DNA from: a virus
Strand: one strand, 5' to 3'
IMG/VR virus record: IMGVR_UViG_3300050343_000268
Location: 1-64,000 of that record
DNA length: 64,000 nt
The notes beneath the pieces are model-generated. The model was not told the DNA's origin. It did no database searches and worked only from the letters and a program-made list of their open reading frames with translations. Shown in pieces: positions 49,367 through 61,403 of the stretch. The position numbers and the translations under genes are program-made. How positions within the stretch are numbered: the first letter of the stretch is position 1; every line of letters begins with the position of its first letter.

Positions 49367-49392
49367 TGGAAACTCCTAATGAGGGGAAATTT

Positions 49393-49452
49393 CCCGTTCC
49401 TTCAGCACTTAACTTGCTTACTTGCGTCTCAACAATATGTTGAGATGAACGT
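49393..49452 (-). ncRNA. glnA-type glutamine riboswitch
   Basis: CGUUCA-UCUCAACA/UGUUGAGA-CGCA-AGUA-AGCA..UGCU-GAA-GGAACG: P1, P2 and E-loop P3; TACACT -10 box at 49459-49464. Confidence 0.8.
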
Positions 49453-49476
49453 ATTACTAGTGTAGCAATTGATCGA

Positions 49477-49932: not shown

Positions 49933-51243
49933 TCAATGTGTATCTTGCCAACTTGCTCCAGTATCAGCAGCTGCTGTAATCGGCACACGGAACTTGTAAT
50001 ACTGTCCAGCGATAGGAGCAGCTTTAACAAGTAGTTCTGCTACATGATCAGCTTCAGTTGGTACAACAGAGAGTTGAACTTCATCGTGTACGTAGGCGCA
50101 ACGGGTGTAGTCACGGTTGTAGGTAAGCCCTGCTTGGTTAAGCAAGTCTTGCCCAACTACCACCCAACGCTTGCTGAGTATGGCTCCACATGACTGGAGT
50201 AAATAGTTGAGTGACGCATGCTCTGCGCGACAGAAAATAGGGCGGCCATCGAGGCCCCTAAGACGACCGGTATCACGGACTTTTTGTTTAACAGCATCGA
50301 TAAGTGGCTCCAAACCAGGAATGGCGTCAAGGAATTTGCGTCGCAGCTCTTGACCTAGCTGCTTCTTCTGTGGGTCGGACAGCTCAGGGCTGAGGCTGTG
50401 CCCCATCTTCACGTCACCAGCGCCATAGATAAACGCATAGGTGAGCGTCTTGACTTCCTTACGTGTGCAACCCACACGGTCTGCGTTCTGCTGATGAATA
50501 TCACCGTTAAGGACAACGTCAGCAAAGGCCCCCTCATCAAAGACAGATAGGTAGTGCCCCAACGCCCGAAGTTCCAGGCCTTCCAAGTCAGCCCCGACCA
50601 TGACGTGGCCAGGGTGCGGAATAAACAGCTGCCGCGCCCACGGTGCAGATACAACTTGGCCCAGGTTGGGACCACGGTGTGCGTTCCTCCCGGTCTGCGT
50701 AGCGAGGCTGCAGCTGTGATGGATGCAGTTGTCATGCTCAATAGTGTTGAACCAGGAGTTAGCACCTTCAGACAGCTGCCCTAGCCACTTCTGCAGATGT
50801 GAATAGACGTATGAACATCTCGCACTCTTCATGCAGCAGTTCGTTCTTTTGCTGCAGTGCAAGGTCACGGATCTCAGCTAGGCAAGCTTCATCAACCTTG
50901 AGGCTTACCGCTAGGTCGGTGAGCCGTGTAAAGCGAGCACCACGGAAGGTGCTGTAGCGCCCATGACAATGTTCAGTCTGCTAGTGGGATTGAAATCAAG
51001 CAGCTTAGTGAAAGGTGCACCAGCTACATAGCCCTTTAGCTTTGTTCTGTCTCTTAGGCGTAAAGACTTTGCCTGGCACATAAGGGAAGCGCTTAAGATA
51101 ATTGCTGCTTCTAGGTCCTGCATCTCAGCAGAGAGTTCGTTGCGTACACGTTCTGCAGCTTGTACATCAAAGCGGAAGCCTGATGCTTCTTGCTGAGACA
51201 TGATCTCAGCCATACGCATTTCAAGATGTACACAATCAAGCAT
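49933..51243 (-). CDS. polA: DNA polymerase family A, polymerase domain only, with indels at ~50800-51100
   Basis: Motif A DLEGLELR, motif B RKEVKTLTYAFIYG, motif C VHDE; starts at LEMRMAEIMSQQEASGFRFD. Confidence 0.92.
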
Positions 51244-51475
51244 TGTCAGGTTTCTCCTTATTGAATCCGAATTTTTCAGTCACTTCTTTTTCGCGTTCGT
51301 CTGCTCGCTTCTTCTGTGCAAGCTTCGCTACATTCTCCATGATCTTGAGAGAATCTTCAACTGTTGTTTCATCAGGCATAACAGCACGTACTACTGAAAA
51401 GAGTTCATAAAACTCTTTAGCAGCAACTTGCATCTCTTTTTTAGTTAATGGATCAGTTTTCTTAGGCATAATCAT
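51236..51475 (-). CDS. Small helical protein between the exonuclease and polymerase genes
   Basis: Overlaps both neighbours by short start/stop overlaps. Confidence 0.6.
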   Translation of the reverse strand: MIMPKKTDPLTKKEMQVAAKEFYELFSVVRAVMPDETTVEDSLKIMENVAKLAQKKRADEREKEVTEKFGFNKEKPDNA

Positions 51476-51990
51476 TCATCCTGCGGAGCATGAGCTCATA
51501 TAGTTTTACGGTAACTTCTGTATCTTGAATACAGTAGTCAAGCATTTCTGGGGTGTAAACATCCCAAGCAGCTTCGTGCTTACCGAAGTCACCTTTGAAA
51601 CACTTAAGGCGATAGCCCCATGCCTCTAGGCTATGACGGCCATAGAGCTTTTGTGGCATACCGATTGGCCGACGTTCGTGATCACGGTCAGCAATGTGTG
51701 GATAGAACAGACTGACTAAGAACAAGAGTGTCGATGACTTGACCTTGATAGTCAAAGTCGTATGTCTCTTTAATTAGAGGAATGTCATAGCCAATAATAT
51801 TGTGTCCAATAAGTACATCAGCTTGGCGTAGGCTTTCAATGCCATCATCAAGATCTAAGCGCGGAGCATCCCACACAAGTGGCTTGTCAGATTGACTTAA
51901 GTCACGTGCAACAATGCAATGAATTTTAGAACCACGACGCAAGAGGCCAGTAGATTCAAGGTCAAATAGAAGTGCTGTTGTTGTTTTCAT
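51462..51990 (-). CDS. Stand-alone 3'-5' exonuclease domain of family A polymerase, with an indel near 51720
   Basis: ExoI FDLES, ExoII GHNIIGYD, HSLEAWGYRL, ExoIII YCIQD. Confidence 0.88.
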
Positions 51991-52549
51991 TGATTTGTTC
52001 GTCATATTGTGAAGCATCGAAACTGCTTGATTCTGTCGGGCTATGCGTGTAGAGATCTTTGTCTTGGAATTGTTGTTCCCTGTCATCGAATCTAGGAGCT
52101 TGATTGTTGTTTTCAAAGCGTTCGTCTGCATCGTCAAATAGTGGTTCAATGGATATAAAAAGTTCTCGTGCTAATCGTGCTGCACGTCTAAATTCGTCCT
52201 TGTAATAAGGCTCCCATTCGTGAGCTAGGACGATAATTTTGCGAATGCCCATCAGATAAAGCTGAAAGACGGACGCAGAGAATGGGTATCGTGTCGAGTA
52301 AATAACTGCACCAGTGATAGGTGTGCCACGTTTACAGGCAGTGGCAATAGCATATGTAATGCAATCCAGCTCTACTTTGCAGTCAGCCAGAATACTTCTA
52401 CCATCACCGCAAATCTCTCGATCACGGATAATTACACATCCACCAGGAGCAATAGGGTGAGTACTGCCAGTAGATACTTGCTTGGCAAGATCCATAAAGT
52501 ATTTATCCTTGTTTTTGATAAAGGTTGGGTCTGACTTTGGTGCAGGCAT
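51962..52549 (-). CDS. dCMP-deaminase-fold protein lacking catalytic motifs
   Basis: DKYFMDLAKQVS..S......GCVII...GAVIYSTRYP.....GIRKI; no HAE, no PCxxC. Confidence 0.7.
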   Translation of the reverse strand: MPAPKSDPTFIKNKDKYFMDLAKQVSTGSTHPIAPGGCVIIRDREICGDGRSILADCKVELDCITYAIATACKRGTPITGAVIYSTRYPFSASVFQLYLMGIRKIIVLAHEWEPYYKDEFRRAARLARELFISIEPLFDDADERFENNNQAPRFDDREQQFQDKDLYTHSPTESSSFDASQYDEQINENNNSTSI

Positions 52550-52599
52550 ATCTCACATATTGAGTCGGTTGTTTCTATATTAGATAAGTGAACTAATAA

Positions 52600-52953
52600 A
52601 TGAGACATATGGATTACGGCAAGTTCAAAAAAGAATATGACGAATTTGAGGAATATAATATGAATCGCATGCCATATGAATCAATTAACAAAAAATCCTT
52701 GGCCTGGCTTGATGTTCGTAATAATTATGGCAAGCAAGATATGGTCAACAGTCCAGCTCATTACACACGAGGCAGTCAGGAAGTCATTGACATTATTGAG
52801 CAAGCTATCACTGATGCACCTGGTAATACAGAAGGATATCTACAAGGCCAAGCGTTGAAATATCTGTTGCGTGTATGGCTTAAGGACAACCCTAAGCAAG
52901 ACTGTGAGAAAGCGGTCTGGTATTTAAATCGACTTATCGATAAACTCGACTAA
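52600..52953 (+). CDS. DUF3310 / T7 gp1.7-like protein
   Basis: DMVNSPAHY..G..EVID...GQALKY..R...K....D.EKA.WY. Confidence 0.8.
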   Translation: MRHMDYGKFKKEYDEFEEYNMNRMPYESINKKSLAWLDVRNNYGKQDMVNSPAHYTRGSQEVIDIIEQAITDAPGNTEGYLQGQALKYLLRVWLKDNPKQDCEKAVWYLNRLIDKLD

Positions 52954-52974
52954 CAAATGGCCGGCGTTAGCCGG

Positions 52975-53397
52975 CTAACATCGTTGAAAGTAAAGGTCAC
53001 CGTCTGCATGTGAGAGAGATTCAAACTCTTGAATATGGGGGCGGATTTTTTCTAACAAGGTTTTAGTGTCTATAGAGGCGTGTTTGAAAGTACAGGCATA
53101 GCCTTGAGAGAATGGTATGTGCTGATGAATTGGTATGTACCACATTAAAGGAATAAGGCAGTCCCAAGGCTCAAGACCCTGTGATGCCCAACAATTAAGC
53201 TCTTCTAACCGAGCTGCCGTCTTAATAATATGAGCTTCATGTGCTTCAGATTCAGGTATAAATAATTCATTATATGGAGAAACGATAGCATGCCTCCACA
53301 TTATGGTTCCATCTCTATGTATTAAACGACAGGGATGAACTTGGTTACCAGAAGGTAAGTTATAAAGAGACGCTGGCGAAAGATGCTTAACCATCAA
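52975..53397 (-). CDS. Peptidase M15-like protein lacking metal ligands
   Basis: W..A......P......IIKTA..LEE......WY...FSQGYACTF aligns to H-x-x-G-x-A-x-D. Confidence 0.4.
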   Translation of the reverse strand: MMVKHLSPASLYNLPSGNQVHPCRLIHRDGTIMWRHAIVSPYNELFIPESEAHEAHIIKTAARLEELNCWASQGLEPWDCLIPLMWYIPIHQHIPFSQGYACTFKHASIDTKTLLEKIRPHIQEFESLSHADGDLYFQRC

Positions 53398-54064
53398 ACG
53401 TTACCTTTACGCTCTTCGTAATATTCAAGATCTCTTTGCCAAGAATCACCAGTAAACTCATTTAATACTACTCGACCGATATCACGAAAACTATTATAGA
53501 AAAGTGAAACTTTGTCTACAGAGGTAATCGTCACATCTACTGGTGGTCCATAGATAATAAGGTTCCAGGTTGAAGGGCAGACTGGTTCAAATCCTTTGGC
53601 AGTAGCCCTTAGCTGTTTAATACGTTTGAATGGAATACAGAAGGGATAGTCAAGCAAAGCGGGTGCTGCTCGTAGAATCTCAGATGCATTAGTGAAGAAA
53701 ACAAAACTATTGATATGGTGATTACGATACTCATTAATTGTTTTATTCAGCCAGATGCGAGTTGTACGTACAGCTCCTTTTGGTGCGACAAACACATTCC
53801 CATGCCAGTGTTCCTGTAATGGGTTAGCTTCTACAGACGGTACAGAAGTAGCATCGACAAGCACTTGTTGTACAGGGTCAGAAGTAGGATCAAAGTCAAT
53901 TGATCCCATGACAGTACGTGCACGTTCAATGATTTGAGGGGTGGGTATAACGGGAGTTTTAATCCAGAAGCTTTTAGCTTATCCGCTAAATTCTGCTGTG
54001 ATCGCTCTGAGGCTTTCTTGGCCCCCTCCTGCTTCGAGACTAAATGTTCTTGTTCCAGCATCAC
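53394..54064 (-). CDS. Phage Dam-like N6-adenine methyltransferase homologue lacking NPPY, with an indel near 53940
   Basis: TPQIIERARTVMGSIDFDPTS...W.GNVFVAPKG. Confidence 0.65.
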
Positions 54065-54401
54065 TGATCAATGTAATTAATACGTTTTTAGACCAGTCAT
54101 TCTCGTCAATTTCCTCAAGCAGTGAACGCAAAAACTCCACAATTTCTGTATCCTCTTCGCGTTCAGCAGAGACTAAATCAGATTCAACATCATGGCCTGA
54201 CATATATGTTGTGGAGTCGTTAACTAAATTGATGACTAAGGAGCCGGCACCTGAGGTTTCAACTCCATTCATAGCAACGTTGATTAAGTCTGTAAGAATA
54301 AGTTCAGCAGTAGCAGCCAAAAACTTTTGTTCATTGGTTTTTTCTTCGCCGAATTTATCGGATTGAAGAAGTTGCTGAAGTAAATCTGTACGTCTAGACA
54401 T
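53979..54401 (-). CDS. Hypothetical acidic protein
   Basis: 140-aa ORF. Confidence 0.6.
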   Translation of the reverse strand: MSRRTDLLQQLLQSDKFGEEKTNEQKFLAATAELILTDLINVAMNGVETSGAGSLVINLVNDSTTYMSGHDVESDLVSAEREEDTEIVEFLRSLLEEIDENDWSKNVLITLISDAGTRTFSLEAGGGQESLRAITAEFSG

Positions 54402-54433
54402 AATTGAATGACTCTTTGTTTAGGATAAGTAAT

Positions 54434-55249
54434 TTAAAATTCTTCTGTGGGGTTTTCATCGTTTTCCTCGTTATCAGTTGGAGCACGAAACAAACCAGGA
54501 TTAGAAGGTTCTGTTTGAGAGATATGTTTGCCAGCTAAAATATCGGTCATAACAGCTTCAAACCTATCAACATACTGCGTGTTTGGATCTAGCAAGAGCG
54601 CTGCCCTAGCTTCGATTTCAGCAGTATCATCTTTCTTCTGCTCCTCTTTAATTGCTTCTTCAATTACATATTCTTGTACTTGTTGACGTAACGTGTGTAA
54701 TTGACAAGCTAGTTCAAAGGAATCGACGTAACTGTCTTGATCTACAAATACTCCAACGTGTTGAGGAATCAGATGGAAAGGGTTGCAGCAATACTTTTCA
54801 CCACAGGTAGTCTTTACACCAGTAAAACCTAAGTCTCCCCATGTGAACCACATAGCTACACGTTGTGGGTGATGTTGAGTTGAGGTAGAGATACCAGGCC
54901 TGCGCCATGCAAACTGAGGCTGCTTGGTTCTAGGATTTACTACTCCGTTCCACATCCAGCATTCGTCTGGTTGACCAATATCAACTTGTGACCAAAACTT
55001 GAGTGCTTTATTCCTGTATTTTTTCATCAAGCGATCAATATCAAATGACAACATGCCTTCCCTTGCGGAGCTTACGCATCGCACACAGGCCTGATGGCTG
55101 TCATAGCGCATTGAGTGAGAACTAAATCTACCAAGAGAGTGACCACTGTAGATACACAGTTCGCCTTCTTCAGCAGTATTGGACATTTGCAAATGGCGTC
55201 TACCGTAAGCATGTCCTCCTCTTCGTTTATTAGGTTGAGCTTCAGCCAT
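54434..55249 (-). CDS. HNH/His-Me finger-like protein with altered active site
   Basis: FWSQVD...ECWMWNG...PQRVAMW...KTTCGEKYCCNPFHL. Confidence 0.65.
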   Translation of the reverse strand: MAEAQPNKRRGGHAYGRRHLQMSNTAEEGELCIYSGHSLGRFSSHSMRYDSHQACVRCVSSAREGMLSFDIDRLMKKYRNKALKFWSQVDIGQPDECWMWNGVVNPRTKQPQFAWRRPGISTSTQHHPQRVAMWFTWGDLGFTGVKTTCGEKYCCNPFHLIPQHVGVFVDQDSYVDSFELACQLHTLRQQVQEYVIEEAIKEEQKKDDTAEIEARAALLLDPNTQYVDRFEAVMTDILAGKHISQTEPSNPGLFRAPTDNEENDENPTEEF

Positions 55250-55486
55250 TTAGTTCTCTGATTTGGTACTAGCAAACGTGCCGCCCAATGCTGGGTATTG
55301 ATCATCGGCTGGCAATGCAGTCAATTGATGGTTAATCATGTATTCATAACGTGTGCTATTTTCATACTTTATACGAACAAGTTTAGTGTTGGGGGTGTAG
55401 TACTCAGGCTTACCTACAACAAGCGCTGTCATGTCATTAGAAGACACACGTACCCGCAATCCAATCTGAATATCTGATGATTTCAT
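55250..55486 (-). CDS. Small SH3/KOW-like protein
   Basis: IQIGLRVRV...ALVVG...VRIKYE. Confidence 0.5.
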   Translation of the reverse strand: MKSSDIQIGLRVRVSSNDMTALVVGKPEYYTPNTKLVRIKYENSTRYEYMINHQLTALPADDQYPALGGTFASTKSEN

Positions 55487-55506
55487 TTATAAAAAATATA
55501 TAGTGT

Positions 55507-57721
55507 TTAAAAGTCGTTGAGAATATGATCGTCAGTTAATGGATCGTCAGTAGGACGAATCCATAGTCGAACTGATTTAACCTTATTCGTAACAGGATCT
55601 TTGCGTGAAGTGTTTAATCGTCTCCAGCCAAGTGTTTGTAAAACATCAGCTACTCGACGAGCTTCGCGTCGTCCTTGCTGCCTGGGGTCAAGGTCAAGTG
55701 CTTTGGTAAGAACCTCAGCAGCTGAAACCTCTTCTTTCAGACTGACGTAATGACTAATCTTTTCCATCCAAGGATCTGGATCGCCAAACTCTTGGATGTA
55801 CTCAGCGATCTGAGCGATCTCACCGCTATTGAATTCATATGAATTGCCATCACGATAAGCTTGAACAGCTGATGCCCATAGGGAATCACGTTCTTCACTA
55901 ATCTGCTTCCAAGGAATTAAGAAGCCGCTGCCGATCTCAAGAGGTACAAAGCGGCGATTGCCTGTACTATCAACGAGAAACTGGTTACGATTAGTCGTGC
56001 CAATCATAACAAAGCGACGAAGTAGTCGCTCAGGAAGACTAGCATATGGTCTTCTTACTTCATCACAACGTGTTGTAATTAGGTTCTTGAAGTTCTCAAT
56101 GTTGCGTGATTGGAAGAAGTGGTCAATCTCAGGGAGCTCTAGCAACCAAGCAACGTGCAACCTGTATTGCTCTTTCATTAAGGTCTCTAATGGAGTAGAG
56201 ACTTCAGCAAAGAGCTTCTCAGGGACAAGACTACGGCTAAACATTGACTTACCTACACCTTGAGCACCAACTAAGATTGGGAGCCAGGACATAGAACAGC
56301 CAGGGTTATAAGCACGAGCTACTGCACCAATCATCATGCGCTGCATGGCAAGCGTTGACAGATGATTTTTGTTGCCTAAGAACACTTCACCAATACGATC
56401 CCAATCTTTATGTGGGATGGCGTGAGCGGAGCAAGAATCCAAGTAACGTCTAATAGGGCAGTACCTGTTCTTACCAGCTGCGTATTGAATGGCAGCTTTT
56501 ATACGCTGCTTCAGGAATAAAGACTCCGTGCTCGCAAGCAAGCTTGGTAGTCATTAAGTCAAGGTCATTACCCTCTAGCTCAATGGTTTTACCATTAGCG
56601 TCGTCATATTCAATTGCCCCTGTAAGTTCGTTCTTACGAAGGTTAGTCAAAATTTCTTTGACCTTTTTTACATCGTCTTCGCGCTCTTTAGCAGCATCAC
56701 TGCCTGAACGCTTGGGTCTACCTTTTGTTCTTTTAGCTTGAGAAGCATCAGGTATGGGCTCAAATTCAGGATCCAATTTCACCTCCAGGTTATTAATTAC
56801 ATCATCAAAGTTTGGTAGAGCATCAAATTCTATGTAGCCTACCGCCGATCCAACAGCACCAAAGCGTAACTCTGGCGGTAATTGTGATGACCAACTACTG
56901 CTTTGTCTTTTTGCTAGTGAGTATAACTTAGCAGGTCCACTATGATTACCGAGACCGCGCCATTTAAATGGTTGAATATTCTCACGTTTCTCGCCGTGAT
57001 GTCCACGCAATACCCAGTCAACCCAGTCATCAAACACAGGCTGACCAATAGCTGCACAGGCAGCCATAACAGGTACATAGCGAGTTTCATACTCGCCATC
57101 TTCTGATGGTACTAAGAAGTTTCTTAGTAACCACTGACAACGCTTGATGTCTGCATCAGTTACGTCTGAAGCAACAAAGTCTGTTGGATCATCGTAATCA
57201 ATGTCAGTTAGCAGAAACTCAGGGACTAATGCATCTGCATTGATAAGCCATTCAGCCTTGGTGTTGCCATACCAAAGCCGCTCAGGCTTCTGTCCGCAGT
57301 TATCTTTGATTGTCTCAATACCAAGGTCAGCAAATAGTCTGTTGACTACAAGCCAGTAAGCACCGCGATGCTGTGACGTGGTCTTAAGTTCTAGCTCAAG
57401 GGGAAACAAAGCACGGAACCTGTGCTCTGATTCGGTATGACTAGCAGTGGTATAAGTAGCAACACACCAGTTACGGGCAGTATCTGTATTCCAAAATGCA
57501 TCGAGGGTAGTGTCGCCATCGATATCTACAACAACTAAGTTGCTGCCTGATGCATTATCAACACGTCTGTGCCTGCCAACAAAATGAGTGGCGCACCAGC
57601 CATAGCCAGCTTCCACCCATCCTCGTAGCCATGTGAGACTTTCTTCAATGTTTAACCAGCCCTGAGCTGGTTGCTTTTCTTTGTTGCGGCAGTCTTTATG
57701 AACTGCAATCCGCAGCTTCAT
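55507..57721 (-). CDS. Primase fused to VapE-type helicase, with an indel near 56505
   Basis: VVVDIDG and HRFRALF primase motifs, PriCT-like segment; Walker A GAQGVGKS, ELPE, GTTN, DSTGNRRF. Confidence 0.88.
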
Positions 57722-58472
57722 TATTGTCATCCTCTGGATATAGTTCGTGGAACATTTTTGCTCTTTTTAAAAAGCGTGATTCATAGAGTTCAAGCTGGTC
57801 TCCATCAATGAAGATCGCTTGAGTTGTCTCTTCAGTGGCTACCAAAATCAGTGCCACGTCACATAGAAACCCGACACGCTCGTTCAATGCGTATCGATAT
57901 GCAGCCATCTGCTGCGCACACTTTTGAAACTTTCTCCATCCGCCATACCCGACACGATCACCTCTGTCTGGTGAAAAGGCGGAGTATGGGCCATTGCTGG
58001 TTTTGAAGTCAGCAATTACTTTTACACCACCAATCTCTCCAATGAGATCAGGGCATCCAGCAAATAAATGTTCAGTACTCCAGACATATGCGACTTCTTT
58101 GTCATCACTACGTAAGTTATTCCAGTCAGGGCGAAGTGGTCGCTCAGACCAATGAATTGTATCAAACCAATCTAGGTATTGGGATAACCCATTCCAAAAT
58201 GGTTGATATTCTTCAGGTACTCCTGGATCTAACCCACGTAGATAATTTTCACACCCAAGGTGAATAGCAGTGCCACGTGTCGCAGCAGCTTCTAGCGCAC
58301 CTGGGTTTTTGTCCTGCCACTGCCGCAAGCCTGCTTTCGACTTTTCACTTTCAGTACCTGAAAGGACGGTCGTGACTGACGGCATGTAGAGACCCGAACA
58401 TAGATATTTGCGGTGTCCTGCCGACGTCTGTATACGATAAGGCTTATCATGAGTGGTTGAGTTTGTCATCAA
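57696..58472 (-). CDS. PD-(D/E)xK exonuclease
   Basis: PSVTTVL, RGTAIH, AGCPDLI, ADFKTS, QMAAY. Confidence 0.85.
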   Translation of the reverse strand: MMTNSTTHDKPYRIQTSAGHRKYLCSGLYMPSVTTVLSGTESEKSKAGLRQWQDKNPGALEAAATRGTAIHLGCENYLRGLDPGVPEEYQPFWNGLSQYLDWFDTIHWSERPLRPDWNNLRSDDKEVAYVWSTEHLFAGCPDLIGEIGGVKVIADFKTSNGPYSAFSPDRGDRVGYGGWRKFQKCAQQMAAYRYALNERVGFLCDVALILVATEETTQAIFIDGDQLELYESRFLKRAKMFHELYPEDDNNEAADCSS

Positions 58473-58855
58473 TAATCTGATTCTTGTTCTACGCTTTGTG
58501 CAAAGTTTTGACTGTACGTTGGGCCTTGGCTAAATTCCTGCCCTTGAGCATTGCTTTCGGGTGACGGTTGAAACATTTGATATAAAGTCCCCACTGCCTG
58601 ACCAACTGCATCAACAACATTTGAATTTGCATCAAGTTGCTGTTTTAATTCATTCACTTCTTGGCGAAGTGCAATGATGTGATCCATCAAGGAAGGTGGC
58701 TTAACTACCTGTGGTTGTTGTGCAGCAACTGGTGCTGGTTGAGTTGGTGCAGCTGGTGCGTTATCTCCAGGCACTTGTCCAGCCATGATTTGAGCCAGAC
58801 GAGCTTGCATTTCTGGAGGTAGATTTTGTAATGCAGGTGAAATTGGTTGAGACAT
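58469..58855 (-). CDS. Hypothetical Q/P-rich coiled-coil protein
   Basis: 128-aa ORF. Confidence 0.55.
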   Translation of the reverse strand: MSQPISPALQNLPPEMQARLAQIMAGQVPGDNAPAAPTQPAPVAAQQPQVVKPPSLMDHIIALRQEVNELKQQLDANSNVVDAVGQAVGTLYQMFQPSPESNAQGQEFSQGPTYSQNFAQSVEQESDY

Positions 58856-58857
58856 AA

Positions 58858-59598
58858 TTAAAATTCAGTATTATCTTGTTCTGGTGCTTGGCTAGATACA
58901 GTTGGTGCAACTACAGCGCCTCGCTTATCTTGTCCGCCAGCCGGGAGACCTTTTTCGTCAGTTGAACGTCCATCAAAAGGATCCTTTCCTTCAAAGAAGT
59001 TGGGGAGCCAAATACTATCTCGTGAGGTCTGCCATTCCTTAATAATTTTCTCCGGTACTTTACGTACCTTTGGAAGGATTGAATATGTAGTTTCCAACCC
59101 AGCTCCCTTACGGCTGATTTTAATCGAAAAGTTTGCCAAACCTTCCTCTGTCCAAGTGTAATCTTCAATTTCTTGAAGGACTTCTGTAAGTTGATCACGG
59201 ATTGATTTCTGCTCAATGAATAAAACTTCTAATCTTCCACGAGTTGCTGAGGTAGCAACCCATGCAAGGAAACGACGGGGCTTGACATAACTTCCATCGA
59301 TTTTTGGTCGATCTGGTTTGGACCAGTCGGTCTCACGGGCAATGTCAGCAGGAGAACCAGGGTGGCTCCTAGTAACGACGTAGCCATTAAAACGGAGGTC
59401 ACCGGTCTTGGGATCCTTGATTTCTGATGCGTACTGCCATCCAGTGATTGCATGTCCGGTGTCGTAGCATCCAAGCAAACGAAATTCTTCGGATTCTCCA
59501 TCTTTAAGTGAGCTAGGTTTCCAGTATGGTTGTGCTTCTTTAGTTTCAATTTTATCTTTAGTTTCCAGTAATTCTGGAGGTAGGACTTGAAGTGTCAT
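58858..59598 (-). CDS. Putative ssDNA-binding/annealing protein
   Basis: LKDGE..EFRLLG...IKISRKGAGLETTYSILP...FEGKDPF; acidic/aromatic C-terminus; adjacent to the exonuclease. Confidence 0.55.
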   Translation of the reverse strand: MTLQVLPPELLETKDKIETKEAQPYWKPSSLKDGESEEFRLLGCYDTGHAITGWQYASEIKDPKTGDLRFNGYVVTRSHPGSPADIARETDWSKPDRPKIDGSYVKPRRFLAWVATSATRGRLEVLFIEQKSIRDQLTEVLQEIEDYTWTEEGLANFSIKISRKGAGLETTYSILPKVRKVPEKIIKEWQTSRDSIWLPNFFEGKDPFDGRSTDEKGLPAGGQDKRGAVVAPTVSSQAPEQDNTEF

Positions 59599-59663
59599 TA
59601 TTTATTATTAGTAGACTCTTCAAATGTAAGATATATAATATATAAATGTGAGCTCCAGTAATT

Positions 59664-59975
59664 ATGCGATTAGCAGGTATATTTGCCGAACAATTAGGCA
59701 CCCCTCTCCATGTATCAGCGGCAGATGCACCAATTAATTATGGAGTAATTGGAAGTGAAATAGGTCACACAGCTGGGGTACTCGATGGATTAAAAGAATA
59801 TGGCAATGCACTATTGTCTCCTTTTACTGGTGGGTTTAACCAACCATTAGGAGAAACAGATCTCTATGGACGCAACCCAGATGGTTCTGGAAGATCAATG
59901 GGTGAAGCAATGGAATACATAGAAAAAGGTGTTAGAAACCGTGAGGATGCCGTAAGAATGCTGTTAAAAAAGTAA
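59664..59975 (+). CDS. Hypothetical protein starting MRLAG
   Basis: Isolated + strand gene within the - strand block. Confidence 0.55.
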   Translation: MRLAGIFAEQLGTPLHVSAADAPINYGVIGSEIGHTAGVLDGLKEYGNALLSPFTGGFNQPLGETDLYGRNPDGSGRSMGEAMEYIEKGVRNREDAVRMLLKK

Positions 59976-60057
59976 GCATCTATAAATGAAGCGGTTAAGG
60001 GTATCTAATCGCTTCATACTCATCTATTAAAAAAGCCGGTGTTAGCCGGCAATGGTT

Positions 60058-60718
60058 TTAATAGTCAGGTGTTGGATCAACTTCGGTATATCCTGCTGCT
60101 GAACCACTTGATTGTGGATTAGTTGACTTTCGCGGTTGTTCTTGACGTGTGCTGAAATCGGTTGCAACGATTGCGCGATATGGACTATCGGAATCATCTT
60201 TACGATATTCACGGATATAGCCTTGTACACAAATAGCGCGACCTTTACGCACACGATCAGTAAGTTTTTTAAGGCGTGACTCGTGCGCTTCAAGATACAG
60301 CCAAGTTGTCACACTAGAGTTGTCTAGTGTTGTTCCAATCTTGACTGCGACTGTACCATTCTTGCGTTCTTTAATTTCATCACTACCAAAGAATGCATTA
60401 CCAAGAACGACTTGGTTGCAGTACATATCTTGAGGGATATTAGTTTCAATAGTCGTAACAATTAGATCTAGTGGCTTGGCAGTATCGTCACTGAAAACGA
60501 TATTACCGGTAATCAATGCACGTGTACCTGGCTTCCAACCTTGGAACGTTGTAAGTTTTGCACCTGCCCTGTCATAGCAGAGGAGCCTGAGTTTAACTTC
60601 TGATCCACTGCTGCCAGCGGGCACCACAGCGTCAGCACCCCTATAGTCCAACCCATAAGCGTTGATCGGATCATTAATTGGGCGATTTGAATTCAACGGT
60701 TGCTGCTATAAAGTTCAT
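60058..60718 (-). CDS. ssb: Single-stranded DNA-binding protein, possibly tandem OB folds, with an indel near the start
   Basis: NQVVLGN...VRKGRAICVQGYIRE; acidic tail. Confidence 0.65.
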
Positions 60719-60759: not shown

Positions 60760-61403
60760 TTAGTAGTTAATTGTGGGATGTGGCCACATTGCTTCTGTAA
60801 TTGTTGGCAGTTTTTCTCGAATAATCTCCATTGCATTTAGTGCAATTTGTGTATGCTCCCATTGGGTGCCATGCCAACTTCGCAAGTCGATGTAATGCAG
60901 CCAACTACGGATTGTGCCCGACATATACAGCCTAGTTTTGGTGTTCATAGGCAGAACTGCACGTGCACACTCCTTAGCAACGCCTGCATCAAGCATCCGT
61001 TCGTGAGTTTCATGCCTTCACAAAAGTGAATTGAGCAATATCTGAGCCGAAGTTCTCATTAACCGACTGTGGTATGTCGTCAATTGAGTTCTGACGGTTG
61101 ACTACGTCTTGCCTACGAAGATGTGGAAGTTCAAATTCAGTAGCAACTGCATAGCGTTGACTAAATTCTTGAAAAGAAAATGAACGATGTCTTAAGATCT
61201 GCGGTGCAATCGCTCGTGTTGTCTCAATCTCTAAGCACATGGAAGCCATTTCAAACGGGCTCCAGTGCTTGTGCTTAATTAAGATACTTAAGAAGACCAA
61301 CAACGTTAGGATTGTCTTCGTTAGCTGGGTTTGAAACCCTAGCAATTTTACCGATTAGTTTTTCAGCGTCTGGAGTAATCCAAACAAGTTTGGCGTCATG
61401 CAT
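60760..61403 (-). CDS. thyX: Flavin-dependent thymidylate synthase, with indels
   Basis: [38 protein letters not shown]. Confidence 0.92.

Follow-up and report, generated by a model that had tools for sequence, protein, structure and literature searches.

Can phage genes that have kept the folds of enzymes and lost the residues with which those enzymes act be core genes of a replication module, and if so, what might their products do? The question is raised by the IMG/VR virus record IMGVR_UViG_3300050343_000268, a 77-kb record of which the first 64 kb (positions 1 to 64,000, hereafter the window) were analysed. A sequence-only reading of the window had singled out four open reading frames (ORFs) between the primase and polymerase genes as an island of pseudoenzymes, namely homologs of a deaminase, a Dam methyltransferase, an HNH nuclease and an M15 peptidase, each lacking catalytic residues. 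All four ORFs are present, and all lie on the minus strand:

51962..52549, minus strand: deaminase-fold protein, 195 amino acids (aa); assigned by homology, conservation and the canonical version in a sister group
52975..53397, minus strand: protein with the M15A/LAS (Hedgehog/DD-peptidase) fold, 140 aa; assigned by predicted fold
53394..54061, minus strand: Dam-like (PF05869-related) gene, 222 aa in relatives; assigned by homology; in this record the ORF is 53394-53909 (171 aa)
54434..55249, minus strand: His-Me finger (HNH-like) protein, 271 aa; assigned by PHROG, tblastn and hhalign

Profile searches, hhalign comparisons and fold searches upheld all four fold or homology assignments, the canonical residues are absent from each protein, the losses are old and the genes are under purifying selection, so that the picture of a pseudoenzyme island stands in each of these respects. 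The four genes are working genes and not decaying ones. The comparisons that follow draw on three phage lineages. Relatives of the window were taken from 183 viral contigs with a primase-helicase 75-97% identical to that of the window, 80 of which form the set used here (L002-L081). A sister group of 47 loci (L086-L132), from viral contigs that reach 94 kb and many of which are 65-95 kb long, was found with a distant non-canonical Dam-like clade. The third lineage is that of S-EIV1 (KJ410740), a cultured polar freshwater Synechococcus phage.

Enzyme folds without the canonical residues

The deaminase-like protein scores 24.9 bits against the Pfam family dCMP_cyt_deam_1 (PF00383), for which the cut-off is 25. 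A profile of 31 deaminase-like sequences recovered RibD (2.4e-5), dCMP deaminase (2.8e-4) and TadA from PDB, in a range extending to 1e-2, and hhalign aligned the family with the canonical deaminases of the sister phages at 97% (E 1.2e-10, 118 columns); a tblastn search of cultured phages with the protein gave no match. In the hhalign alignment the HAE motif falls on K58-V59-E60, that is, the zinc-ligand His is replaced by Lys and the Glu is retained. The PCxxC zinc ligands are aligned to P-F-S-A-S, both Cys being gone in the window and in all close relatives, and a stretch of about 19 residues bearing a G-Y-N-G motif has been deleted. These losses are conserved in 52/52 full-length relatives, and E60 and D62 are invariant. 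The sequence-only reading was thus right about the fold, the missing motifs and the S-A-S replacement; its placement of HAE at ELDCI is about two residues out of register. The last ~60 residues of the protein form an acidic, low-complexity, disordered C-terminal tail.

Direct Pfam scans of the Dam-like protein of the window and of its relatives gave no match. A profile search of 1.84 billion representatives returned 685 relatives, one of which (P0045) matches PF05869 at 6e-8, and hhalign aligned the family with the NPP-bearing relatives at 100% (E 7.7e-41). The PF05869 blocks visible in the alignment are (E/Y)-x-T-P, G-x-I-D-L-D-P-A-S, W-x-G-x-V-F, N-P-P-(Y/G)-G, C-x-P-x-x-R and Y-L-P-P. At motif IV, where (D/N/S)-P-P-(Y/F/W) is expected, the protein has V-A-P-K-G, in agreement with the VFVAPKG that had been read in place of NPPY. 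Of the 128 representative relatives, 98 have (D/N/S)PP in this column; the nearest clades, among them all matches with E <1e-15, lack it. The replacement loop differs from clade to clade (V-A-P-K-G, G-A-P-T-G, L-H-P-H and F-P-P-N); in the clade of the window all members share P-K-G-A-V. The motif X/I region is retained as Y-P-T-P ... I-D-F-D-P, with P40, G53, D56, D58 and P59 (full-length numbering) invariant in 44 Dam-like sequences from both the window's group and the sister group. As a separate observation, 54 of the 128 representative PF05869-like relatives (P0030-P0150) have N-P-P-G-G instead of N-P-P-Y; the aromatic residue of N-P-P-Y usually stacks on the target adenine, and to judge from its sequences this large NPPGG clade may be atypical. 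An AlphaFold2 (AF2) model of the truncated Dam-like ORF, with a predicted local distance difference test score (pLDDT) of 58.8, gave weak, methyltransferase-enriched matches (E >=0.06, Z <=5.4) and was not used as evidence.

The HNH-like protein matches PHROG HNH families at 1.5e-8 to 3e-5 (PHROG 1872, 826 and 4842 at 1.5e-8 to 2e-6); tblastn recovered annotated HNH endonucleases of actinophages and haloviruses at ~2e-4, and hhalign against annotated HNH endonucleases gave 98.6% (E 6.3e-16, 74 columns). The nearest named ESM Atlas cluster, HNH_3, serves as a lead only, and a homolog search with this family returned close relatives only. Canonical members read V-R-H-T-C-D-N-x-x-C-x-N-P-x-H-L-x-x-G-T-x-x-D-N-x-x-D, and the window protein reads V-K-T-T-C-G-E-K-Y-C-C-N-P-F-H-L and then diverges. 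The catalytic His two residues before the first Cys (H-x-C) is Thr in the window's clade (T-T-C) and Arg in S-EIV1. The metal-binding Asn helix (D-N-x-x-D) is absent: the alignment to canonical members stops at N-P-x-H-L, and there is no conserved Asn beyond. C97, C149, C154 and H159 (C...C-x4-C-x4-H) are invariant in 27 sequences from the three lineages, as is an N-terminal zinc-finger-like motif, C32 ... C55-x-x-C58. From these alignments the structural zinc sites appear to have been kept, and the catalytic His and metal-binding Asn are gone, in line with the earlier remark that the protein retains its zinc ligands without the His before the first Cys. Its C-terminal part combines a coiled region with an acidic tail whose last residue is Phe. 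One relative has an internal stop codon in this gene (L055:7611-8417), which could be an error or a real pseudogene.

The M15-like protein, the least secure of the initial assignments, has no sequence-level match in Pfam, PHROG or PDB sequences. Its AF2 model has a pLDDT of 92.6 and a predicted template modelling score (pTM) of 0.86. Foldseek against PDB gave weak matches to Hedgehog N-domains (E 0.14). A PDB search independent of Foldseek placed the Streptomyces albus Zn DD-peptidase 1lbu (M15A) at the top (Z 10.2, root-mean-square deviation 2.6, 105 residues), followed by Hedgehog-N (Z 6.6-7.4), VldE, Ply500, LysB4 and DacB and, lower, by VanXY, MepA, VanX, VanY and T5 endolysin; the LAS members other than 1lbu match at Z 4-7.4, and the top eight PDB matches all belong to the LAS superfamily. 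Among viral models (BFVD) it matches 'Peptidase M15A, C-terminal' at a template modelling (TM) score of 0.63 over 136 columns and a model from Microcystis phage LMM01 at TM 0.60. The predicted structure therefore bears the assignment out at the level of the fold. As no His is invariant across 36 sequences from the window's group and the sister group, the H-x6-D ... H zinc triad cannot be present; its expected positions read F-S-Q-G-Y-A-C-T, the segment that had been noticed as FSQGYACTF, and Y-F-Q-R-C. The invariant residues are P15, G17, R24, D29, W34, A61, W86 and G99.

Searches of PDB sequences with profiles of the Dam-like, M15A-like and HNH-like families, and of orfE, the gene upstream of the Dam-like gene, gave nothing meaningful; matches to gasdermin, NRC2a and designed repeats were rejected as spurious. 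For orfE there was likewise no family match in Pfam or PHROG and none in the ESM Atlas.

Age of the losses and selection on the genes

The motif substitutions are conserved in 52-80 related loci. No close relative keeps the canonical motifs; a canonical deaminase occurs only in the distant sister group, where the protein matches PF00383 at 2.6e-19 and has both H-A-E and T-C-S-Q-C. The other three sister-group proteins have already departed from their canonical forms: the Dam-like loop is non-canonical, the M15-like protein is again without the triad, and the residue at the position of the catalytic His of the HNH-like protein is variable (H, A, T, M, P, N or R). Motif loss in all but the deaminase-like gene thus extends to the 47 sister-group loci, at 25-35% identity. 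Since the sister group is already non-canonical for the Dam-like, HNH-like and M15-like proteins, sequence comparison dates these three losses as ancient, before the split of the two groups, and marks the deaminase loss as specific to the window's lineage.

Selection was measured as pairwise Nei-Gojobori dN/dS (nonsynonymous over synonymous substitutions per site), and with dS at ~1.5, near saturation, the values are rough. The helicase has a dN/dS of 0.085, against 0.09-0.22 for the four genes (Dam-like 0.09, HNH-like 0.11, deaminase-like 0.17, M15-like 0.22); the value for orfE is 0.16. The substitutions are, then, shared by about 80 relatives in genes whose dN/dS is low, as the sequence-only reading had anticipated for repurposed folds. 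Given their age and the strength of purifying selection, the losses reflect neither decay nor error.

Errors of another kind do occur in this record. Compared with L002 (97% identical in VapE helicase protein, ~93% in DNA), it has single-base uncompensated indels at 56507, 53941-53942, 51715, 50796-51096 and 60781-61294. The extra base at 56507 splits the primase-helicase gene, the indels at 51715 and ~50796-51096 split the exonuclease and polymerase ORFs of the polymerase module, and ThyX is frameshifted. In the Dam-like gene a 1-nt deletion near 53941/53942 removes 51 N-terminal codons: in 79/79 relatives the frame stays open for 50-52 further codons to an ATG start, giving proteins of 222-223 aa, and the T-P motif of the family is found in frame within the 23 codons that precede the annotated ATG. 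The earlier description of the ORFs as otherwise full length thus does not hold for this gene. Near-identical contigs from independent metagenomes are free of the indels at 53941 and 56506/7; at 53941/53942 the missing base is present in such contigs from one RNA library and two independent seawater metagenomes, so that the break in the Dam-like gene is confined to this record and the gene is whole in nature. The frameshifts leave the motif sites untouched.

Gene neighbourhood and host phage

The remaining genes of the island and its borders are:

49933..52149, minus strand: family A DNA polymerase module; PHROG and comparison with relative L002
52600..52953, plus strand: DUF3310 protein, 117 aa, PHROG label 'nucleotide kinase'; PF11753 at 6e-15
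53979..54401, minus strand: orfE, 140 aa, no recognisable family or fold; conserved adjacency
55250..55486, minus strand: orfG, 78 aa, co-conserved with the HNH-like gene; comparison of related loci
55507..57730, minus strand: primase-VapE helicase, ~740 aa and a single gene in relatives; Pfam, PHROG and relatives

On the minus strand the order from the primase-helicase is orfG, HNH-like, orfE, Dam-like, M15-like, deaminase-like and polymerase module, and the island genes are found in nearly all related loci (71-80 of 80). The start of the M15A-like gene overlaps the Dam-like stop by 4 nt, and the 5' end of the Dam-like gene overlaps orfE by 83 nt in another frame. The DUF3310 gene, which does not count among the four, separates the deaminase-like from the M15A-like gene and runs on the opposite strand; 52 of the 80 related loci have it at >=80% coverage, and the corresponding place in the sister group is without it. 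In L002 the polymerase module is made up of three ORFs, for an exonuclease (240 aa), a 79-aa product and a polymerase (442 aa). Right after the polymerase gene of that relative lies a segment of about 1 kb that has no counterpart in the window (L002:16599-17615), with a 256-aa ORF on the opposite strand, and this may be a mobile insertion. ThyX and the beta subunit of ribonucleotide reductase (RNR) are encoded nearby in the window's genome; a search of this genome for a second deaminase or Dam found neither.

In the sister group the order, established with hidden Markov models, is primase-helicase, deaminase, orfG, HNH-like, an insert of ~2.8 kb that includes ThyX, orfE, Dam-like and M15-like. 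In S-EIV1 an HNH-like gene lies downstream of the primase (V-S-R-T-C-N-N-P-R-C-C-N-P-L-H-M), and an orfE homolog (E 1.5e-15) is followed directly by a Dam-like gene (E 5.6e-10) with F-P-P-N at motif IV and then by an annotated dCTP deaminase; a search of S-EIV1 for M15-like and deaminase-fold homologs recovered none. The dCTP deaminase thus comes after the Dam-like gene in S-EIV1, and the sister-group ThyX lies just upstream of orfE, with one 70-aa ORF between them (L086:5601-6359, L167:1278-1865). Immediately upstream of the Dam-like gene in all three lineages, orfE forms with it a pair that in each of them stands among genes for pyrimidine deoxynucleoside triphosphate (dNTP) synthesis (ThyX, dCMP or dCTP deaminase); by sequence comparison this pair is the most widely conserved unit. 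A complex prediction for orfE, the M15A-like protein and the full-length Dam-like protein, run without controls, scored 0.00 against a mark of 0.32 and is counted neither for nor against such a complex.

An acidic stretch over the last 12 residues together with a terminal aromatic residue is found in 5 of 84 non-overlapping ORFs of the window. All five lie at 54434-60696, in the replication block; besides the HNH-like gene and the primase-helicase they comprise three ORFs without a family match, of 128, 246 and 212 aa. D-F forms the C terminus of the helicase in 77/77 relatives, while the HNH-like protein ends in F or Y in 62/81 and orfG in F in 64/81. T7 gp4, T7 gp2.5 and Escherichia coli SSB dock on their partners via acidic/aromatic tails, an analogy which hints at a shared, clade-specific docking code. 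As a feature of the whole family the tails were dropped, the sister group being without them.

A blastn search of cultured phages with the region found no near relative, and the best helicase matches among cultured phages are ~30% identical. Near-identical contigs are present in seawater metagenomes of many studies. Metatranscriptome contigs (X20, 90-99% alike) span parts of the island and, DNA carry-over being possible, are not taken as a sign of transcription. A glutamine riboswitch (RF01739) lies at 49391-49453 on the minus strand, just downstream of the polymerase module, and scores 51.6 bits against a gathering score of 35; we take this class to be one known from cyanobacteria and marine phages. 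The riboswitch, together with the homologs of island genes in cultured S-EIV1, fits a cyanophage; the phage belongs to an abundant, uncultured marine lineage, probably one of cyanophages. Our literature search found no paper on this gene island.

Possible roles and comparison with known systems

We infer from the missing residues that the original activities have been lost. The four proteins would descend from a dCMP deaminase, a Dam methyltransferase of the PF05869 type, a His-Me finger (HNH) nuclease and an M15A/LAS zinc peptidase, and would have given up canonical catalytic or metal residues while retaining the fold and some ligand-holding elements, among them the structural zinc site of the His-Me finger, the motif X/I of the Dam-like protein (Y-P-T-P ... 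I-D-x-D-P) and the deaminase Glu. Sequence evidence gives about an even chance, in our estimate, that they now serve as non-catalytic binding or scaffolding subunits in replication or nucleotide metabolism. The His-Me finger protein could then be a DNA-binding factor stabilised by zinc, with its acidic, Phe-terminated C-terminal tail as the dock on the replisome; the deaminase-like protein could bind nucleotides or act as a scaffold in partnership with the ThyX and RNR of the phage, which supply dNTPs; and orfE with the Dam-like and M15A-like proteins could be a co-inherited unit that might still bind S-adenosylmethionine (SAM) or a nucleotide. The variability at the catalytic-His position of the HNH-like protein and in the motif IV loop of the Dam-like protein is as expected if these positions no longer matter. 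Several points weigh against this proposal. The P-K-G-A-V loop, invariant in the window's clade, the E60 of the deaminase-like protein and D-x-D-P could, as sequence features, point to new chemistry rather than none; the zinc-ligand equivalences in the M15A-like protein come from alignment ranges and conservation, not from residue-level superposition; conservation of the acidic/aromatic tails does not extend to the sister group; and the argument from these tails leans on analogy with T7 gp4, gp2.5 and E. coli SSB.

The motif losses might be put down to sequencing error, to pseudogenes of recent origin or to remnants of a homing endonuclease and other mobile genes, and indel errors are indeed real in this record, where the Dam-like, primase-helicase, polymerase and ThyX genes are all frameshifted. 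The substitutions, however, are point differences common to about 80 independent contigs, and three of the genes have them also in a sister group at ~30% identity; all four genes are under purifying selection and the frameshifts miss the motifs. Shared substitutions and purifying selection refute artefact or decay as the cause, and we give that explanation next to no credence. A reading that we consider unlikely, though a serious one, is that enzymatic activity persists, through other residues, in at least one of the proteins, the foremost candidate being the Dam-like protein with orfE; this could be, for instance, a SAM-dependent transferase acting on nucleotide or DNA with a different acceptor, in a new modification step linked to the ThyX/deaminase pathway. 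It would account for the invariance of the five motif X/I residues in both phage groups, of P-K-G-A-V in the window clade and of E60 and D62 in the deaminase-like protein; the genes are also always adjacent to ThyX, dCMP deaminase or dCTP deaminase, and the nearest NPP-bearing relatives often have the unusual NPPG already (the 54 of 128 noted above). Yet the Asn/Asp of (D/N/S)PP(Y/F/W), to our knowledge required in all known amino-methyltransferases, is absent from the Dam-like protein, and the difference in its loop between clades speaks against a shared new active site; moreover, all three zinc ligands of the deaminase are lost and the M15A-like family has no invariant His.

The sequence-only reading had also raised a role in anti-defence. 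In such a role the proteins would blunt host immunity as decoys, sponges or inhibitors, either by mimicking enzymes or by sequestering SAM, nucleotides or DNA ends. Inhibitors and decoys commonly derive from dead enzyme folds, and the long acidic tails of the deaminase-like and HNH-like proteins would suit such a role, which we nevertheless hold to be improbable here. Genes for counter-defence tend to be accessory, to change position and to evolve fast, whereas these genes are present in 71-80 of 80 related loci and in the sister group, at fixed positions in the replication module, with dN/dS like that of the helicase. Their universal presence, their fixed position in the replication/dNTP module and their helicase-like constraint are the reasons for preferring core subunits of replication or nucleotide metabolism, which fit better than anti-defence decoys.

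A more ambitious reading, which we offer as frankly speculative and would not expect to hold, is that orfE, the Dam-like and the M15A-like proteins form a complex that, with the dead His-Me finger and the deaminase-like protein, couples dTMP/dNTP synthesis to the replisome or performs a new SAM-dependent modification of nucleotides or DNA. A globally abundant cyanophage group would then be defined as a lineage by an ancient 'pseudoenzyme replisome module'. In eukaryotic signalling pseudoenzymes are well known; in phages they have been little studied. Here three ancient losses of catalytic residues and one more recent one stand side by side in core genes that are about as constrained as the replicative helicase. 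If the products are subunits of a replisome or dNTP complex, they would show how replication can draw accessory factors from old enzyme folds; should the Dam-like/orfE pair have stayed enzymatic, a methyltransferase-fold protein would be working without (D/N/S)PPY. The question is testable at the bench because cultured S-EIV1 carries both the orfE/Dam-like pair and the HNH-like gene, and the sister group with its intact deaminase provides a natural before-and-after comparison.

Set beside known systems, the island shows the following likenesses and differences: 1) The deaminase-like protein shares a fold-level sequence signature with phage and bacterial dCMP deaminases (PF00383; S. mutans 2hvw, T4 Cd 1vq2) and with the sister-group deaminase, and an acidic C-terminal tail and a location in the replication/dNTP module are common to it and dCMP deaminases including that of the sister group; it differs in the change of His to Lys, the loss of both Cys, the deletion of the GYNG segment and a longer C-terminal tail. 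2) With PF05869 Dam, which we take to comprise phage-type N6-adenine DNA methyltransferases of the T1/HP1/VT2 type, the Dam-like protein has in common the domain order and conserved blocks (W-x-G-x-V, C-x-P-x-x-R, Y-L-P-P), but it has V-A-P-K-G for N-P-P-Y/G and no direct Pfam match, and unlike PF05869 Dam it is constantly paired with orfE among replication/dNTP genes. 3) The HNH/His-Me finger endonucleases of actinophages and haloviruses, whose zinc site is of the I-PpoI type, share with the HNH-like protein the core W-S-x-V ... D-E-C-W-x-W ... C-x4-C-x-N-P-x-H-L; in the latter Thr stands in place of the catalytic His (a residue that varies in the sister group) and the G-T-x-x-D-N-x-x-D helix is absent, whereas an extra N-terminal zinc-finger-like motif, the coiled region and acidic tail, and a fixed, non-mobile position are its own. 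4) S-EIV1 resembles the window in its HNH-like gene, its pair of orfE and Dam-like genes and its non-canonical motif IV, and differs from it in that M15A-like and deaminase-fold homologs were not found and a dCTP deaminase follows the Dam-like gene. 5) The M15A-like protein has the fold of the M15A/LAS zinc peptidases (1lbu, the endolysins Ply500 and T5 EndoT5, and the Hedgehog N-domain) without detectable sequence similarity or a conserved H/D/H triad; to judge by gene context it is cytoplasmic and belongs to the replication module, whereas the M15A/LAS phage endolysins belong to the lysis module, and by analogy with Hedgehog-N its fold may serve binding only.

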